The notes below the pieces were generated by a model. It saw only the letters and a list, made by a program, of their open reading frames with translations, was not told the DNA's origin and did no database searches. This document shows, piece after piece, positions 1,551 through 62,178 of a stretch of 64,000 nucleotides of DNA (positions within the stretch are counted from its first letter, which is position 1; every line of letters starts with the position of its first letter). Source of the stretch: Octopus vulgaris. Its lineage: Eukaryota. The position numbers were made by a program, and so were the translations under genes. The DNA is taken from the NCBI GenBank assembly GCA_951406725.2, contig OX597838.1, forward strand, positions 13,330,001 through 13,394,000, read 5' to 3'.

Positions 1551-1970
1551 ATTTCTTTATTACCCACAAGAAGGACAGACATAGGTTTTAAGTCGATTAC
1601 ATCGAATCCAGTGTGTAACTGGTACTTAATTTATCGACCCCGAAAGGATGAAAGGCAAAGTCGACCTCGGCGGAATTTGAACTCACAACATAACGGCAGA
1701 CGAAATGCCTATTTCTTTATTACCCACAAGGGGCTAAACACAGAGGGGACAAAGAAGGACAGACATAGGTATTAAGTCGATTACATCGAATCCAGTGTGT
1801 AACTGGTACTTAATTTATCGACCCCGAAAGGATGAAAGGCAAAGTCGACCTCGGCGGAATTTGAACTCACAACGTAACGGCAGACGAAATACCTATTTCT
1901 TTATTACCCACAAGGGGCTAAACACAGAGGGGACAAAGAAGGACAGACATAGGTATTAAGTCGATTACAT
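1551..1970 (-). mobile_element. SINE family B, head-less tandem array (~2.3 units)
   Basis: Repeats of the family-B body joined at GAAAT(G/A)CC|TATTTC, the same junction as in the 16377 array. Confidence 0.9.
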
Positions 1971-1988
1971 ATACATATATACGTATAT

Positions 1989-2930
1989 ACATATATACGA
2001 CGGGCTTCTTTCAGTTTCCGTCTACCAAATCCACTCACAAGGCTTTGGTCGGTCCGGGGCTATAGCGGAAGACACTTGCCCAAGATGCCACGCAATGGGA
2101 CTGAACCCGGAACCAAGTGGTTGGTAAACAAGCTACTTACCACACAGCCACTCCTACACCTGTATGTTCTCTTTCTGTTTTTTTTGTTTTTTTTTTAATT
2201 TAGAATACCTTGTCTTAACCACCACCCTGTAAATCCTAAGAAAGTTTTCCAGATTTTTACAGTCTCAGATATCGTGATCATTTGTAGCATCCTATGTATT
2301 TACTCTTTTACTCTTTTACTTGTTTCAGTCATTTGACTGCGGCCATGCTGGAGCACCGCCTTTAGTTGAGAAAATCGACCCCGGGACTTATTCTTTGTAA
2401 GCCCAGTACTTATTCTATCGGTCTCTTTTGCCGAACCGCTAAGTTACGGGGACGTAAACACACCAGCATCGGTTGTCAAGCAATGCTAGGGGGACAAACA
2501 CAGACACACAAACACACACACACACACACACTTATATATATATACATATATACGACAGGCTTCTTTCAGTTTCCGTCTACCAAATCCACTCACAAGGCTT
2601 TGGTCGGCCCGGGGCTATAGCAGAAGACACTTGCCCAAGATGCCACGCAGTGGGACTGAACCCGGAACCATGTGGTTGGTTAACAAGCTACTTACCACAC
2701 AGCCACTCCTACTCTTTTACTCTTTTACTTGTTTCAGTCATTTGACTGCGGCCATGCTGGAGCACCGCCTTTAATCGAGCAACTCGACCCCGGGACTTAT
2801 TCTTTTGTAAGCCCAGTACTTATTCTATCGGTCTCTTTTGCCGAACCGCTAAGTAACGGGGACGTAAACACACCAGCATCGGTTGTCAAGCAATGCTAGG
2901 GGGACAAACACAGACACACAAACACACACA

Positions 2931-2979
<49 letters not shown>

Positions 2980-3140
2980 GACGGGCTTCTTTCAGTTTCC
3001 GTCTACCAAATCCACTCACAAGGCATTGGTCGGTCCGGGGCTATAGCGGAAGACACTTGCCCAAGATGCCACGCAATGGGACTGAACCCGGAACCATGTG
3101 GTTGGTAAACAAGCTACTTACCACACAGCCACTCCTACAC
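1989..3140 (-). mobile_element. SINE family A cluster: 5' half (1989-2160) and two tandem full copies (2301-2712, 2711-3140)
   Basis: tRNA-like head (A box TGGCTGTGTGG, B box GGTTCAGTCCC on minus), internal (TA)n(TG)n, (GTAAAAGA)n tail. Confidence 0.92.
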
Positions 3141-3459
3141 CTGTATGTTCTTTTTCTGTTTTTTTTTTGTTTTTTTTTTAAATTTAGAATACCTTGTCTT
3201 AACCACCACCCTGTAAATCCTAAGAAAGTCTTCCAGATTTTTACAGTCTCAGATATCGTGATCATTTGTAGTATCCTATGTATGTATGTTTTCCCTTTGA
3301 GTTTTATCTAAGTTCTTCTTGAGAGAGTTCAAGCCGATCGCTAACTAATTGACCAGGCTTTTTGAGTTAAGGAAGTTTCCGGTGTTTGTAAGTATGTGGT
3401 GGGGGGTTGGTGCGTTGGTGGAACTGCCGATGAATATGTCTTTTATTCTTGTCTTTTAG

Positions 3460-4805: not shown

Positions 4806-5025
4806 GGCGGCGAGCTGGCAGAAGCGGTAGCACGCTGGGCGAAATGCTGAGCGGTATTTCGTCTGCCGCTACGTTCTGAGTTCAAATTCCGCCGAGGTCA
4901 ACTTTGCCTTTCATCCTTTCGGGGTCGATTAAATAAGTACCAGTTACGCACTGGGGTCGAATTATCGACTTTACTCGTTTGTCTGTCCTCTCTGTGTTTG
5001 GCCCCTTGTGGGTGGTAAAGAAATA
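4806..5025 (+). mobile_element. SINE family B, full monomer with ~17-bp TSD
   Basis: GGCGGCGAGCTGGCAGAA head, GAGTTCAAATTCC B box, AAAGAAATA end; GTTTATTTGACAAAAAA duplicated at 4789-4805 and 5026-5042. Confidence 0.92.
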
Positions 5026-15349: not shown

Positions 15350-15535
15350 CGTGTCTTTGGCCAATCACAGCTTGACAATCGGTGCGGGTTTGTTTACATT
15401 ACCGTATCTTAGTTATTCGGCACTTGAATTGATAAAATAAGTACCAGATTTTAAAAAATCATAAGTTCTGGGATCGATTTGTTCAATTAAAACTCTCGTA
15501 GGCGATGCCCGCCAATCTTACGACTGAAACAAAAT
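14975..15535 (+). mobile_element. Old diverged SINE family A relative
   Basis: Recognisable CCAAAGCCTT..GTGGATTTGG and CTGAAACAA blocks around an expanded (TG)n. Confidence 0.7.
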
Positions 15536-16322
15536 ATAAAAGATAAACGACGTCGAAATAAAGAGTACTTTATATAACTGATCTGAGAGTCTAACTTCGT
15601 GTATTATCAAATACGAAAGGTTCGGCAAATATGAACTCGCAGTTTATCTTACGTAACTGCACACAGTGACCCAGCAGTGACCTAGTCTTTATGCGGATAT
15701 AACTTTGCACATGCACCGATGCAGAAATTTAATATAAAAGATAAACGACGTCGAAATGAAGAGTACTTTATATAACTGATCTGAGAGTCTAACTTCGTGT
15801 ATTATCAAATACGAAAGGTTCGGCAAATATGAACTCGCAGTTTATCTTACGTAACTGCACACAGTGACCCAGCAGTGACCTAGTATTTATGCGGATATAA
15901 CTTTGCACATGCACCGATGCAGAAATTAATATAAAAGATAAACGACGTCGAAATGAAGAGTACTTTATATAACTGATCTGAGAGTCTAACTTCGTGTATT
16001 ATCAAATATGAAAGGTTCGGCAAATGTGAACTCGCAGTTTATCTTAACGTAACTGCACACAGTGACCCAGCAGTGACCTAGTCTTTATGCGGATATAACT
16101 TTGCACATGCACCGATGCAGAATTTAATATAAAAGATAAACGACGTCGAAATGAAGAGTACTTTATATAACTGATCTGAGAGTCTAACTTCGTGTATTAT
16201 CAAATATGAAAGGTTCGGCAAATGTGAACTCGCAGTTTATCTTAACGTAACTGCACACAGTGACCCAGCAGTGATCTAGTCTTTATGCGGATATAACTTT
16301 GCACATGCACCGATGCAGAAAT
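15534..16322. repeat. Tandem repeat, ~198-bp unit x4
   Basis: Units begin ATATAAAAGATAAACGACGTCG at ~15534, 15732, 15929 and 16127; near identical. Confidence 0.95.
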
Positions 16323-16376
16323 TTGGGATTTGTACATGTCTTGCACTATCGGCCACAAACGCACGAAACCATTACC

Positions 16377-17526
16377 TATTTCTTTATTACCCACAAGGGG
16401 CTAAACATAGAGGGGACAAACAAGGACAGACATGGGTATTAAGTCGATTACATCGACCCCCAGTGCGGAACTGGTACTTAATTTATCGACCCCGAAAGGA
16501 TGAAAGGCAAAGTCGACCCCGGCGGAATTTGAACTCAGAACATAACGGCAGACGAAATACCTATTTCTTTATAACCCACAAGGGGCTAAACACAGAGGGG
16601 ACAAACAAGGACAGACATAGGTATTAAGTCGATTACATCGACCCCAGTGCGGAACTGGTACTTAATTTATCGACCCCGAAAGGATGAAAGGCAAAGTCGA
16701 CCCCGGCGGAATTTGAACTCACAACGTAACGACAGACGAAATACCTATTTCTTTATTACTCACAAGGGGCTAAAAACAGAGGGGACAAACAAGGACAGAC
16801 ATAGGTATTAAGTCGATTACATCGACCCCAGTACGTAACTGGTACTTAATTTATCGACCCCGAAAGGATGAAAGGCAAAGTCGACCTCGGCGGAATTTGA
16901 ACTCACAACGTAACGACAGACGAAATACCTATTTCTTTATTTCCCACAAGGGGCTAAACATAGAGGGGACAAACAAGGACAGACATAGGTATTAAGTCGA
17001 TTACATCGACCCCAGTGCGGAACTGGTACTTAATTTATCGACCCCGAAAGGATGAAAGGCAAAGTCGACCTCGGCGGAATTTGAACTCAGAACGTAACGG
17101 CAGACGAAATACCTATTTCTTTATTACCCACAAGGGGCTAAACACAGAGGAGACAAACAAGGACAGACATAGGTATTAAGTCGATTATATCGACCCCAGT
17201 GCGGAACTGGTACTTAATTTATCGACCCCGAAAGGATGAAAGGCAAAGTCGACCCCGGCGGAATTTGAACTCACAACGTAACGACAGACGAAATACCTAT
17301 TTCTTTACTACCCACAAGGCGCTAAACATAGAGGGGACAAACAAGGACAGACATAGGTATTAAGTCGATTATATCGACCCCAGTGCGGAACTGGTACTTA
17401 ATTTATCGACCCCGAAAGGATGAAAGGCAAAGTCGACCCCGGCGGAATTTGAACTCACAACGTAACGACAGACGAAATACCGCTAAGCATTTCATCCGGC
17501 GTGCTAACGTTTCTGCCAGCTCGCCA
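16377..17526 (-). mobile_element. SINE family B hexameric head-to-tail array (~184-bp period) within one 12-bp TSD
   Basis: One tRNA head (~17480-17526) and five GAAATACC|TATTTC junctions; GAAACCATTACC at 16365-16376 and 17531-17542. Confidence 0.92.
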
Positions 17527-17649
17527 GCAAGAAACCATTACCAGTTTATCTTCCAACCAACATGCAACTAATCACTTATGCTTTCCTTCGATATCTCTTC
17601 ATTTTACTTTTTTCTCTTTAATTATGAAACTATACATTGTTATATTCTA

Positions 17650-18163
17650 CTAGCAGTATCGCCCGGCGTTGCTCGGGTTTGTAAGGGAAATAACTATATA
17701 AGCATTTTTAGAGAGTTACTTCCCTTATAGATGCCAATTCGGGCTTTCTTAGCCATTTCTGTTTTGGTGTCTTCAAGCCATGAAGCCGTTGTTCTAAAAG
17801 AACGCTGGTCTCCTTGACAACGCTTTGCGACGTTGATTTCCTTACACTCCCTTCCCCACAGCTTCACGAGGGAGGGAAGAAGGGGGAGAAGCAAACAGGT
17901 GCAGGTGTGACCATGGACGCCAACTCCGCCGCCATCGACACACGAAAAATTATGCATTAAAATGGAATAAAAAAAGGATGTTAAATTATTTTTAAAATCG
18001 TAGACTCATCGTAGACGCGCGCTAATACTCAGACGGGCTCGATATGAATCACGACTATAAGATACCCGAATTTGGTTAAACTGCACCGCAAAATGTGGGA
18101 GGAGTTAGGAATCTAAATCGAAGGGGACAGACACTCACACAACTACAGTTTTATATATATAGA
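17650..18163 (-). mobile_element. Non-autonomous Helitron with ~225-bp cargo
   Basis: A|TC 5' end, CCCG-AGCAACGC-CGGG hairpin, CTAG|T 3' end, no TSD. Confidence 0.9.
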
Positions 18164-18306: not shown

Positions 18307-18536
18307 GCGGCGAGCTGGCAGAAACGTTAGCACGCCGGGCGAAATGCTTAGCGGTATTTCGTCTGCCGTTACGTTGTGAGTTCAAATTCCGCCGAGGTCG
18401 ACTTTGCCTTTCATCCTTTCGGGGTCGATAAATTAAGTACCAGTTACGCACTGGGGTCTATGTAATCGACTTAATACCTATGTCTGTCCTTGTTTGTCCG
18501 CTCTGTGTTTAGCCCCTTGTGGGTAATAAAGAAATA
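18307..18536 (+). mobile_element. SINE family B with 14-bp TSD
   Basis: GGATTCTTCCCCCA at 18293-18306 and 18537-18550. Confidence 0.93.
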
Positions 18537-19453: not shown

Positions 19454-19845
19454 TTATATATAAAAAGTGAAGTTGTGTGTCTGTTTCCTACGATTTAGAT
19501 TCCTAACTACTCCCACATTTTGCGGTGCAGTGTAACCAAAACCGGGTATCTTATAGTCGTGATTCATATCGAGCCCTTCTGGGTATTAGCGTGCGTCTAC
19601 GATGAGTCTACGATTTTTAAAAAATTTACCATCATATTTTTCCATTTTAATGCATTTTTCGCTATTATATAAGGGAAGTAACTCTCTAAAAATATCTACG
19701 ATGTGTCAACGATTTAAAAAAAAATTTACCTTAATTTTTTTTCCATTTTTAATGCATTTTTTGCTATTTTTGGGCTATAACTCTCTAAAAATGCTTATAT
19801 AGTTATTTCCCTTACAAACCCGAGCAACGCCGGGCGATACTGCTA

Positions 19846-20261: not shown

Positions 20262-21035
20262 GTATGTATGTATGTATGTATGTATGTATGTATGTATGTA
20301 TGTATGTATGTATGTATGTATGTATGTATGTATGTGACGGGCGCGCGCACATTTGCATGTATGTATATGGACACACACATATATATATTTCTTTACAACC
20401 CATAAGGGGCTACACACAGAGAGGACAAACAAGGACAGACAAACGGAAACACACACATATATATGTAAAAGGTTCCCCGCCTTTTGTGTAGCGCTTAAGT
20501 GACGCTATATTTTTTAAGCAGGTGTATAAGGAAATAATTTGAACCATATGCGTTGAATAAACATAGTGACTCAATCAAATTTAAATAGACTAATCTGTGA
20601 AATATTTCTACACCCCCAACTATATCCATCTCAAAGACACTGTGTGGGCTGATGCTTGCTATGTGTTGGTTATGCTTCGCTTCGTTGTTGTCGCCATGGC
20701 AACTAAAGATGAAACTCACTCCCCCTCCTCACTCCACATGTGCATAATCACCTTTTCAAACTTGGTCATTTGAAATTTCAAAGTTTTCCCCCTTGCCGCT
20801 TTTGATAAATGCATTGTCATTCACAATAATATTTCCTCTCGCTTTCATTCTCTTTACACTTATAATATAAGATTTCAGCATTCTCAGGTTGCTGTAACAT
20901 GCATTTTCTTCACAACGTGCACTTAAAATTATCGGTGCTAACCCGCTGCAATCGATATTTGATTCTCACGATCACTGGAACTACAACCATGAATTACAGT
21001 CGTCAAATTAAGCGCCTTTTCTCTCTCTCTCTCTC

Positions 21036-28724: not shown

Positions 28725-28755
28725 TAAGTACACGGTATTTCGTTATGCAACGAGA

Positions 28756-28964
28756 AGGCGGCGAGCTGGCAGAAACGTTAGCACGTCGGACGAAATGCTA
28801 AGCGGTGTTTCGTCTGCTGTTACGTTCTGAGTTCAAATTCCGCCGAGGTCGACTTTGCCTTTCATCCTTTTGGGGTCGATTAAATAAGTACAAGTTACAC
28901 ACTGGAGTCAATATAATCGACTTAATCCGTTTGTCTGTCCTTGTTTGTCCTCTCTGTGTTTAGC

Positions 28965-28967
<3 letters not shown>
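28756..28967 (+). mobile_element. SINE family B (3' end lost in (TA)n)
   Basis: Family match. Confidence 0.9.
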
Positions 28968-29010
<43 letters not shown>

Positions 29011-37007: not shown

Positions 37008-37640
37008 AACCACCTGGCGGAGATTCTCAGCAACTCCCAAAGAAAAGGGAAGATAATTTTTTAAGAATTTTATATTTTTACTTAAGCTCAACGCCAGGAA
37101 TTTTGGGGATAGGAAGGAGCAGGCAATTCTATTGACTCCAGTACTCGACTGACACTCAAATTTATCGACACCGGAGGGATGAAATGCAACCACCTGGCGG
37201 AGATTCTCAGCAACTCCCAAAGAAAAGGGAAGATAATTTTTTTAAGAATTTGTATTTTTATTTAAGCTCAACGCCAGCAATTTTGGGGGTAGGAAGGAGC
37301 AGGCAATTCTATTGACTCCAGTACTCGACTGACACTCAAATTTATCGACACCGGAGGGATGAAATGCAACCACCTGGCGGAGATTCTCAGCAACTCCCAA
37401 AGAAAAGGGAAGATAATTTTTTAAGAATTTATGTTTTTATTTAAGCTCAACGCCAGCAATTTTGGGGATAGGAAGGAGCAGGCAATTCTATTGACTCCAG
37501 TACTCGACTGACACTCAAATTTATCGACCCCGGAGGGATGAAATGCAAAGTTGAACTCGACTAGACTTGAACTCAGAACATAAGGAGTCGGAAACACATC
37601 AAGGTCCTTTGTCCGACGTTCTAACGATTTTGCTAATGAC
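37008..37640. repeat. ~180-bp tandem triplication containing part of an old family-B-like SINE
   Basis: Units start AACCACCTGGCGGAG at 37008, 37188 and 37368; the last unit continues into the SINE head. Confidence 0.9.
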
Positions 37641-37940
37641 TGCTTAAAATTGTTTCTAATTTAGGCAGCACAAGGCCAGCAATTTTGAGGAGAGGGAGGT
37701 GGATGATCAACTTGATCCCCCAGTACTTGACTGGTACTCTGTTTCATCGACCCCTTAGGGATGAAAGGCGAAGTTGACCCCAGCGGAAATTGGGCTTATT
37801 TACAGGTTAAAATTGGACTAACGTATTAGAACTGATCTAAAAGGTGCCTACAAAATATTTCGCTTCAACCTGGTGACGTCTACAAATAGTTTCAACTGAT
37901 TTTCCATGAGGAAATTATGGTTTCCCAAGTCATTTCTACA

Positions 37941-43850: not shown

Positions 43851-43902
<52 letters not shown>

Positions 43903-44175
43903 TACCAAACAAACATGATTTTTATTGAACTCCTAATACTTTTGTTGAGTATTTTCTTAAATACTTTCTTATAAACTGTTTTTAACATTTTCTTATTATT
44001 GTCAAAGAATGTATACATGTATTTTAATACCTTCGTGACAACCAGTACTTAACACAATAAAGCTTATACAAAGCTTTACATTTCACCTTCGACAATATTT
44101 TTCTAAAAACGTGAAACAGGTCAAATGAATAAACATCTTTAAAATTGCATTTTCAAACCATCTTTCATATGTGTG

Positions 44176-44220
<45 letters not shown>

Positions 44221-44540
44221 ACGTGTGTGTGTGTATGTATATATATATATATAAACTACCAAACAAATATGATTTTTATTGAACTTCAAATACTTTTGTT
44301 GAATGTTTTCTTAAATACTTTCTTATAAACTATTTTAACACTTTCTTATTTGTTGTCAAAGAATGTATACATGTATTTTAATACCTTCGTGACAACCAGT
44401 ACTTAACACAATAAAGCTTATACAAAGCTTTACATTTCACCTTCGACAATATTTTTCTAAAAAAGTGAAACAGGTCAAGTGAATAAACACCTTTAAAATT
44501 GCATTTTCAAACCTTCTTTCATATGTGTGTGTGTGTGTAT
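43830..44540. repeat. Tandem duplication, ~355-bp unit x2
   Basis: AAACTACCAAACAAA..TTTTCAAACC at ~43898-44160 and ~44253-44514. Confidence 0.9.
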
Positions 44541-44559: not shown

Positions 44560-45275
44560 AGTTGAGTGCCATTCAATCATAAATAAATAAAAAATACACA
44601 TCAAGTACAGGACACCACCAAAGAGTGAAAAATACTTAAGCATAAGAGAGATAAGTACGCTAAAATCCTGTACTTTCGGTGCGTCTTGTGCCAGACCAAG
44701 AAGACCACCATCGAGAAATAAGCGGCAAGCCTCTGCAACTTGAAGTCGCATGTCAAAAGGAAACACCCAGCGCATGCCATCCAGTTTGAGGAGAGGATCA
44801 AGGTTGGCTCTTCCCGTGGGAAACACAAGCAATCTTCTGGTAGCAGTGCCAGTAGCCAGTCATCGCAGCCATGTGCAAAGAAAGCACGCCATCCTAGCAC
44901 TGGCGAGGTGTTTGCCCAAACTGCTGGCACTGGCGTCCATCAGACTATATTGAACAGTAGGATTGTAGGAGCTGGCAGAAACGTTAGCACGCCGGGCGAA
45001 ATGCGTAGCCGTATTTCATCTGCCGCTACGTTCTGAGTTCAAATTCCGCCGAGGTCGACTTTGCCTTTCATCCTTTCGGGGTCGATAAATTAAGTACGAG
45101 TTAAGCACTGGGGTCGATGTAATCGACTTAATCCGTTTGTCTGTCCTTGTTTGTCCCCTCTGTGTTTAGCCCCTTGTGGGTAGTAAAGAAATAGGATTGT
45201 AGACCTGTTTGTCGACAACATGCTACTGCTGCATGTAGTAGAGTCCCCCAGCTTTGTCGGCCTGATCAAGACAAT
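44560..45275 (+). pseudogene. hAT (Ac/Tol2-like) transposase N-terminus, interrupted by a SINE
   Basis: BED finger CVLC..NLKSHVKRKH; removing the SINE gives NSRIVDLFVDNMLLLHVVESPSFVGLIKT (Hermes-type DNA-binding motif); in-frame stops. Confidence 0.82.
44969..45191 (+). mobile_element. SINE family B with 11-bp TSD
   Basis: TAGGATTGTAG at 44958-44968 and 45192-45202. Confidence 0.93.
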
Positions 45276-48151: not shown

Positions 48152-48522
48152 GCGAGCTGGCAGAAACGTTAGCACGCCGGGCGTTCAAATTCCGCCGAGG
48201 TCGACTTTGCCTTTCATCCTTTCGGGGTCGATTAAATAAGTACCAGTTACACACTGGGGTCGATATAATCGACTTAATCCGTTTGTCTGTCCTTGTTTGT
48301 CCTCTCTGTGTTTAGCCCTTGTGGGTAATAAAGAAATAGGTATTTCGTCTGCCGTTACCTTCTGAGTTCAAATTCCGCCGAGGTCGACTTTGCCTTTCAT
48401 CCTTTCGGGGTCGATTAAATAAGTACCAGTTACACACTGGGGTCGATATAATCGACTTAATCCGTTTGTCTGTCCTTGTTTGTCCCCTCTGTGTTTAGCC
48501 CCTTGTGGGCAGTAAAGAAATA
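48152..48522 (+). mobile_element. SINE family B dimer
   Basis: AAAGAAATA|GGTATTTCG junction at 48338/48339. Confidence 0.9.
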
Positions 48523-52214: not shown

Positions 52215-52416
52215 TTTTGCACAAGGCCAGCAATTTAGGCGAAGAACTAAGTCGATTACATCGGTCGCAAAGTTCAACTGGTACTTATTTTATCGACCCC
52301 GAGAGGATGAAAGGTAAAGTTGACCTCGGCGGAATTTGAACTCAGAACGTAAAGACGAACGAAATGCCGCTAAGCACTTCACCCGCCGTGCTCACGATCC
52401 TGCCAGCTCGCCGCCT
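52215..52416 (-). mobile_element. Older family-B-like SINE with a different tail
   Basis: Head and central domain match family B; tail TTGCTGGCCTTGTGC. Confidence 0.8.
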
Positions 52417-56750: not shown

Positions 56751-56763
56751 CAAGTAGCAGAAA

Positions 56764-57350
56764 GATAAGACAGTAAGGTGTGATTTGAGGGAGATTTGGC
56801 TGCTATTTCTACCATGTCTAGCTGCCATGTAGGGGTCTCCCTCATAGACTCATACATACATATATACATAGATAAGACAGTAAGGTGTGATTTGGGGGAA
56901 ATTTGGCTGCTATTTCTACCAGGTCTAGCTGCCATGTAGGGGTCTCCCTCATAGGCTCATACATACATATATACATAGATAAGACAGTAAGGTGTGATTT
57001 GGGGGAAATTTGGCTGCTATTTCTACCAGGTCTAGCTGCCATGTAGGGATCTCCCTCATAGGCTCATACATACATATATACATAGATAAGACAGTAAGGT
57101 GTGATTTGGGGGAAATTTGGCTGCTATTTCTACCAGGTCTAGCTGCCATGTAGGGATCTCCCTCATAGGCTCATACATACATATATACATAGATAAGACA
57201 GTAAGGTGTGATTTGGGGGAAATTTGGCTGCTATTTCTACCAGGTCTAGCTACCATGTAGAGGTCCCCCTCATTGGCTCATATATATATACATACATAAG
57301 ACAGTAAGGTGTGATTTGAGGGAGATTTGGCTGCTGTTTCTACCAGGTCT
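56764..57350. repeat. 107-bp tandem repeat x~5.5
   Basis: GATAAGACAGTAAGGTGTGATTTG recurs at 107-bp spacing; the ATTTGGCTGCTATTTC core resembles the reverse complement of ~49500-49520. Confidence 0.95.
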
Positions 57351-61947: not shown

Positions 61948-62178
61948 GGCGGCGAGCTGGCAGAAACGTTAGCACGCCGGGCGAAATGCTTAGCGGTATT
62001 TCGTCTGCCGTTACGATGTGAGTTCAAATTCCGCCGAGGTCGACTTTGCCTTTCATCCTTTCGGGTTCGATAAATTAAGTACCAGTTACGCACTGGGGTC
62101 GATGTAATCGACTTAATACCTATGTCTGTCCTTGTTTGTCCTCTCTGTGTTTAGCCCCTTGTGAGTAATTAAGAAATA
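61948..62178 (+). mobile_element. SINE family B with TSD beginning GGTATTTA
   Basis: GGTATTTA at 61925/61939 and 62179. Confidence 0.92.

Follow-up and report, generated by a model that had tools for sequence, protein, structure and literature searches.

The window analysed here, a 64,000-nt stretch of the Octopus vulgaris genome, harbors 27 pieces, as detected by BLAST within it, of a non-coding element (family B) of about 230 bp, in which a head, some 49 bases long, precedes a unit of 184 bases that begins at an internal site and extends to the tail. In the reference monomer (18309..18536, + strand), flanked by a 14-bp duplication, the A-box motif occurs once, in the head at 18316, and a B-box motif match starts at 18380 (B-box-like motif, 18380-18389); the internal site, which starts at 18353, sits between the two motifs, and a hairpin spans 18336-18365. 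Both motifs were identified by the consensus patterns of the two boxes. Judged from its sequence, the element is a tRNA-type SINE whose head has putative A and B boxes for Pol III; ARAGORN reported no tRNA genes and Rfam gave no tRNA match over 15400-17800. The six-unit array described below does not encode a reverse transcriptase and endonuclease of its own, since its unit is 184 bp long and no ORF of at least 110 aa lies within it; as for a partner LINE, no Pfam family was recognized in the 24 of 115 window ORFs that were scanned.

Marks of retroposition are evident in the family, with duplications of 9-17 bp at six loci and 5'-truncated copies at 20386 and 1970. Further monomers lie at 4809..5025 (+; duplication of up to 17 bp), 44969..45193 (+; duplication of 9-11 bp, and a hairpin pair changed on both sides, U-G to G-C, so that the internal site starts with a different base), 61951..62178 (+) and 28760..28968 (+; the 3' end disappears in a run of TA), and a 5'-truncated tail fragment with a 16-bp duplication is found inside a TA/TG repeat at 20386..20441 (-). 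Eight of the nine tail-intact 3' ends terminate at the identical base, one substitution being allowed. A T4 run is missing from 17 of the 19 aligned family pieces, and the first such run lies 67-597 bases beyond the tail. Most copies carry AATAAA in the tail (18524-18529 on the reference), which may help set the 3' end of the RNA. A related copy (52248-52412, -) has the head and core of the family and a different tail, which on the face of its sequence suggests tail exchange. The element is very abundant, between 89,306 and 241,178 contigs per public contig set aligning to the monomer reference.

A core of about 40 bp is common to repeats with other heads and tails at 121 metagenome loci (L001-L121), which are probably SINEs of animal hosts; the core pattern also occurs at one genome locus, and the alignments cover the core alone. 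A tandem repeat with a period of at least 60 was present at one of the 122 core loci, a control of little weight, as arrays interrupt contigs assembled from short reads. Searches with the tail pattern gave no matches in metagenome and viral contigs. The nearest comparison for this core is with the SINE superfamilies that have a conserved central domain (Meta, MESC, V, Nin, CORE and Ceph; PMC4824008, PMC4758252, PMC5804259); the passages of these papers that deal with the superfamilies describe no arrays of the present kind, and the core motif was not found in the searched part of the supplements to central-domain SINE papers.

Head-to-tail units joined at one point had been noticed in the sequence at three loci, and all three arrays were confirmed (1551-1970, 16377-17525 and 48152-48522). 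At each of the eight junctions (5+2+1 over the three loci) the tail AAAGAAATA is joined to one and the same internal base, 18353 on the reference; one array junction reads GGCATTTCG. The largest array, on the minus strand, begins with its sole head (17482..17525), which carries an A-box-like motif and the 5' arm of the head hairpin, and continues with unit 1 (17298..17481, 184 bp), comprising the internal site, a B-box-like motif, the common core and the tail, followed by units 2 (17114..17297), 3 (16930..17113), 4 (16746..16929), 5 (16562..16745) and 6 (16377..16561, 185 bp), the last of which ends at the tail. A private T5 run in unit 4 (16772-16776) is the sole T4 run among array units. The single head and single 12-bp target-site duplication noticed earlier in this hexamer are borne out, the 3' copy of the duplication lying at 16365..16376 and the 5' copy at 17531..17542, with five extra bases between the latter and the head. 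So is the mosaic nature of its units, all four gametes being present at four of ten informative site pairs, with the reservation that unit number and mosaic pattern come from a single assembly, in which polishing errors could also yield mosaic units.

The second array (1551..1970, -) is headless and comprises about 2.4 units, of which the first is 5'-truncated and the last bears a 24-bp deletion. It lies within a TA microsatellite that belongs to a second repeat family, and the host sequence resumes on both sides; loss of its head by a large deletion was considered and is less likely, the host repeat being intact on either side. One insertion from a multimer template would produce an array of this form. 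The third (48152..48522, +) consists of a head and two units whose sequence type is older; TA-rich DNA comes next, and a 39-nt deletion in the head of the array takes out the internal site. Tandem units derived from part of a SINE together with a longer terminal unit, the arrangement that characterizes SINE-derived satellites, are thus found here, with array lengths of six units at most in the window.

The window is rich in microsatellites and holds five other arrays (units of 99-354 bp), indicating that local tandem duplication is common there. One of these, at 15533-16324, contains four copies of a 198-bp unit that are 98% alike and unmatched elsewhere in the window, and ends about 50 bp from the hexamer. 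The remaining four are located at 37008-37548 (180 bp), 56763-57350 (107 bp), 43879-44535 (354 bp) and 19596-19792 (99 bp); the 180-bp unit is made up of part of a related SINE core and other sequence. The second repeat family is tRNA-headed, with 19 matches, and presumably resembles the octopus OR CORE-SINEs. It shows a full-length head-to-tail pair at 2301-3135 (-), and the segment 1966-2302 is duplicated at 2947-3286 (96%).

The occurrence of the junction outside this assembly was assessed in public data, using the segment 18260-18590 with its monomer as reference. Four of the 24 public runs listed were aligned to it, namely three contig sets, labelled as three organisms, and the raw-read run X23; contig counts are presence data only and represent minimum values. 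Among the 15 joints listed, that from 18536 to 18353 has the most contigs in all three sets (at least 23, 23 and 26), and the tail appears as a loose end before 18353 in at least 189-217 contigs per set. Since the joint is present in three public contig sets, the junction is no artefact of the present assembly. It also recurs in another sequence type, with C as the variant first base, in at least 4, 7 and 7 contigs. The C variant makes up 21-32% of the depth at the junction and 18-24% overall; because it is used about as often as it is present, a G in first place is dispensable and the site obeys only a loose sequence rule. In run X23, 14 of 12,895,792 reads align and one bears the junction, which is uninformative on frequency. 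That run carries the organism code of the best contig sets despite its 14 aligned reads, pointing to another organism, a generic label or filtering.

A hint of transcription in X14, a set taken by guess to be RNA, came from its head/tail depth ratio (0.63, against 1.11 in X7 and 1.03 in X8) and from its loose ends at junction and head (217/162, against 197/1289 in X7 and 189/1521 in X8). It was set aside, since expression cannot be read from the depth of contigs and the sets come from different organisms.

Constancy of the junction was part of the original observation, and one main site indeed accounts for all eight junctions in the window, yet the contigs reveal a minor junction from 18536 to 18320, 33 bases further 5' (at least 10, 9 and 11 contigs per set). 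Its site is unlike the internal 7-mer and, by inspection, lies at the edge of the loop of the first small hairpin. This second site, the spread of arrays over two or more sequence types as well as the C variant, and the head-to-head joints at three offsets considered below, which point to repeated events, all argue against a single ancestral array lineage, in which the junction would have arisen once, monomers would derive from priming at the first tail of array RNA and flanks would pair with the RNA that follows the tail. Priming inside the RNA does look normal, given that transcription by Pol III would continue for 67-597 bases beyond the tail and yet nearly all tail-intact copies stop at one base; even so, descent of all arrays from one lineage is very unlikely.

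Units resemble those of their own array. The mean difference is 2.9% within arrays and 7.2% for other pairs, and the nearest neighbour lies in the same array for all ten units (permutation p 4e-5), in a distance matrix that omits A1, 52248, 20386 and 63642. The units of array 48152-48522 (B1/B2) and the pair A2/A3 of array 1551-1970 are each 1.9% apart. Within the hexamer, units 2-3 resemble units 5-6 (2 and 3 differences), and variants at 18395 and 18446 occur in four and five of its six units, respectively, and in none of the nine other units and monomers compared. In array 48152-48522, all checked variants common to its units also occur in the 28760 monomer.

These comparisons bear on the first of two routes originally put forward, in which new copies insert into old ones and resolve their 5' ends by homology, with heterogeneous units taken as its signature. 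Units are 1-5% apart, and their nearest neighbours lie in their own array. In its original form the array would grow in place by successive outside members, with cDNA annealing upstream and leaving no extra head. Precise 5' junctions by cDNA annealing have been proposed for Drosophila R1 and R2, according to the relevant passages of PMC2718515, the target similarity and nested joints reported below agree with the route, and array 48152-48522, given its variants, could have been formed by a pair of members that share a sequence type. Growth in place is nevertheless contradicted in part, because units resemble their own array, with variants private to the hexamer among the copies compared, and because array 1551-1970 is a 5'-truncated, headless multimer in an intact host; we consider it highly improbable as originally worded. 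Mixing and expansion of units by DNA-level exchange (unequal exchange or conversion) are likely from the sequence patterns. A master array or unequal crossover, against which the original prediction had set its reading, enters in part, as multimer sources and DNA-level exchange likely contribute.

The insertion of new copies into old ones at the internal site, the other half of that route, fared better. The five 3' flanks quoted for it (GGATTC, GTTTAT, GGATTG, GGTAAT and GGTATT) are correct to the letter, but one of them is the hexamer's own flank. Their resemblance to the internal GGTATTT holds over all nine tail-intact ends, where the seven bases that follow match the internal 7-mer at 38 of 63 positions (17.5 expected; none of 200,000 draws reached this value), and GG begins four of the nine flanks (p 2e-4). 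Of the four ends beyond those quoted, three enter TA repeats, which themselves match the internal site at 4/7, and one is unlike the site; the test omits copies 25974, 47715, 52248 and 37126-37792, which have other tails or are fragments, and 28760, whose 3' end is lost. Exact 10-mer matches to the internal site number 12 in the window, 11 in family copies and one (28734-28743) just upstream of the 28760 head, with 0.13 expected per window outside a unit. This is suggestive of an insertion into a look-alike site, the 3' partner of which has been lost.

Further support comes from head-to-head joints in the public contigs, in which a head is cut 11, 13 or 15 bases beyond the internal site and is followed by a full head. 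These joints run from 18363 to 18307 (at least 0, 4 and 9 contigs), from 18365 to 18307 (at least 0, 7 and 13), from 18367 to 18309 (at least 1, 0 and 0) and, in two sets, from 18367 to 18307. They imply duplications of 11, 13 and 15 bp with differing letters between, and the copies in the window have 9-17 bp. Such joints are the 5' side expected of a nested insertion at 18353. No contig spanning both nested junctions is among the joints listed for the three sets, and the nested 5' joint is absent from all three window arrays. The joints could instead result from template jumps onto trimmed head RNAs, since they end close to the foot of the head hairpin (18365-18369). Deletions that cover this hairpin (18329-18392 on the reference) and are 31-57 bases long also recur in the contigs, a 39-base one being present in 48152-48338; they may be skips past the hairpin, or else nested insertions that were truncated and lost the target.

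The reading we favor, at roughly even chances of being right, combines self-insertion at the internal site, retroposition of one-headed multimer RNA and subsequent DNA-level exchange. New SINE copies would insert at the internal site of old copies, and the Pol III promoter of the inner copy would carry transcription on through the old unit, yielding a head+unit+unit RNA. Read-through is proposed because the site falls between the motif of the A box and that of the B box and because T4 runs are so rare in the family. Retroposed as one piece by a LINE-type enzyme, this multimer RNA would become a seamless dimer that has a single head and a single duplication, and no homology step would be necessary for seamless arrays. 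Each junction would again serve as an insertion target, and unequal exchange or conversion at the DNA level would later expand and mix the units. What we infer is that the two classes of joint coexist at individual loci, that Pol III reads through, that multimer RNA is retroposed and that units undergo unequal exchange or conversion. The added homogenisation is the weakest link of the mechanism; it must be added because a nested pair should differ by about 7.2%, against the 2.9% within arrays and 1.9% in dimers.

A route through RNA alone was the second one originally put forward. In its stated form, with the RNA cut inside an 8-nt loop and the 3' GAAAUA pairing with UAUUUC, it finds no backing in the predicted folds: the 3' arm of the hairpin, which follows a predicted 4-nt loop, starts with the junction base, and the pairing has a predicted probability of about 0 in monomer and circle alike. 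Revised, the RNA would be cut at the boundary of loop and 3' arm, and a 184-nt circle would be copied repeatedly, or end-to-end jumps would finish on a headed RNA. The junction does coincide with the point where loop and arm meet in a hairpin predicted to be strong (-19.5 kcal/mol; stem pair probabilities 0.83-1.0) in which, over seven headed copies, 96.4% of cells pair and one change affects both sides. The hairpin-loop edge at the minor junction, the use of the C variant at its population share and the resemblance of units within arrays would fit as well. Conservation of the hairpin is, on the other hand, no better than in a shuffle control (75/500 and 194/500), and the fold of the whole monomer is no better than shuffles (z -1.02). 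Rfam searches of both strands, at E up to 10, found no ribozyme over the array and one chance match outside it. Units that are 1-5% apart, with subsets sharing variants and four-gamete pairs, would not be produced by one rolling event; two of the three arrays carry a head, which a circle lacks; head-to-head joints are not predicted by a circle; and the similarity of the dispersed flanks is left unaccounted for unless pairing is added. In contigs, a circle and a tandem array would look alike. Altogether an RNA circle or jump origin appears decidedly unlikely.

Alternatively, the arrays could have begun at the DNA level, microhomology in the 3' flank leading to local duplication of exactly one unit, with read-through and retroposition spreading the product and nesting as a side product. 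The 61951 monomer, whose 3' flank equals the internal 7-mer at 7/7, is a suitable starting point, arrays of other units are frequent in the window, and duplication would give units that are identical at first, fitting their resemblance within arrays. Against this, two of the three arrays end in TA repeats devoid of microhomology, so that a retroposition step is needed anyway; C-starting junctions are unexpected at their observed depth from flanks that mostly start with G; and the second repeat family forms no such fixed partial-unit array. This origin is, in our judgement, distinctly improbable.

Within the self-insertion reading, it is possible, if rather unlikely, that array RNA guides its own targeting, a nicked old copy pairing with the RNA that follows a tail and priming there. 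Such a guide is possible because every tail on a multimer transcript precedes an internal site. If true, arrays would preferentially seed further nested insertions in a self-reinforcing loop, the passenger SINE rather than the LINE enzyme would set the target, and retroposition would start satellites.

The closest known counterparts are the SINE-derived satellites (sSats) of squamates, as portrayed in the pertinent passages of Vassetzky et al. 2023 (PMC10702118), which ascribe their origin to duplication by unequal recombination or to insertion at the same locus. Like the present arrays, they repeat only a portion of a SINE in tandem, while one terminal unit is longer and reaches the SINE end, and in snakes the units keep one boundary across loci, with alternating di- and trimeric variants as a further likeness. 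The snake unit is, by contrast, internal (positions 42-108) and its arrays are hundreds of units long; the unit described here runs from the internal site to the exact 3' end, its arrays show one duplication and 5' truncation, and the nested joints point to the unit boundary being an insertion target. Tandem copies, up to eight, also occur in SINE multimers (Dip/B1 of the Gobi jerboa) and dimers (Alu), and dimeric SINEs are transcribed and integrated as one unit (PMC10702118, same passages). The copies in multimers of the Dip/B1 type are described there as full-length; in the present arrays, a head is confined to the first unit and the joint lies inside it.

Insertion into or beside earlier copies in tandem orientation is also known, from the parts of the reports concerned, for Cnl1 of Cryptococcus (PMC9942834) and tandem R1 of Drosophila (PMC2718515). 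Those elements are autonomous and reside in subtelomeres or rDNA, R1 using a regenerated 14-bp duplication; the present element, unlike them, is dispersed, non-coding and about 230 bp long, has the site in its own head and gives a nested product that is potentially a transcribable source. Metazoan non-LTR retrozymes similarly form tandem units of about 150-300 bp, for which circular RNA has been proposed to give more-than-unit-length cDNA, but in the sections consulted (PMC7761336) they are defined by a hammerhead ribozyme and abundant circles, and the arrays described here have no ribozyme match and a Pol III-type head. Passages of two octopus repeat papers (PMC13282606, PMC12988792) make no mention of such arrays, and those on Zepp (PMC9940879) and in PMC7175516 contain nothing on self-insertion. 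A search of titles and abstracts, outside which lie most of the subscription literature and the repeat databases, found no description of a SINE carrying its own insertion site.

How a dispersed retroposon becomes a tandem repeat is an open question, of which the squamate study, in the passages cited, describes the products (PMC10702118). If only DNA-level duplication acts, the arrays would be an ordinary SINE-derived minisatellite. In the present family, the unit boundary looks set by the insertion site of the element itself and the arrays look mobile, so that the way in which a SINE may turn into a satellite becomes concrete and open to testing in a family of very high abundance, where the question whether pairing between RNA and target steers SINE insertion also arises naturally.
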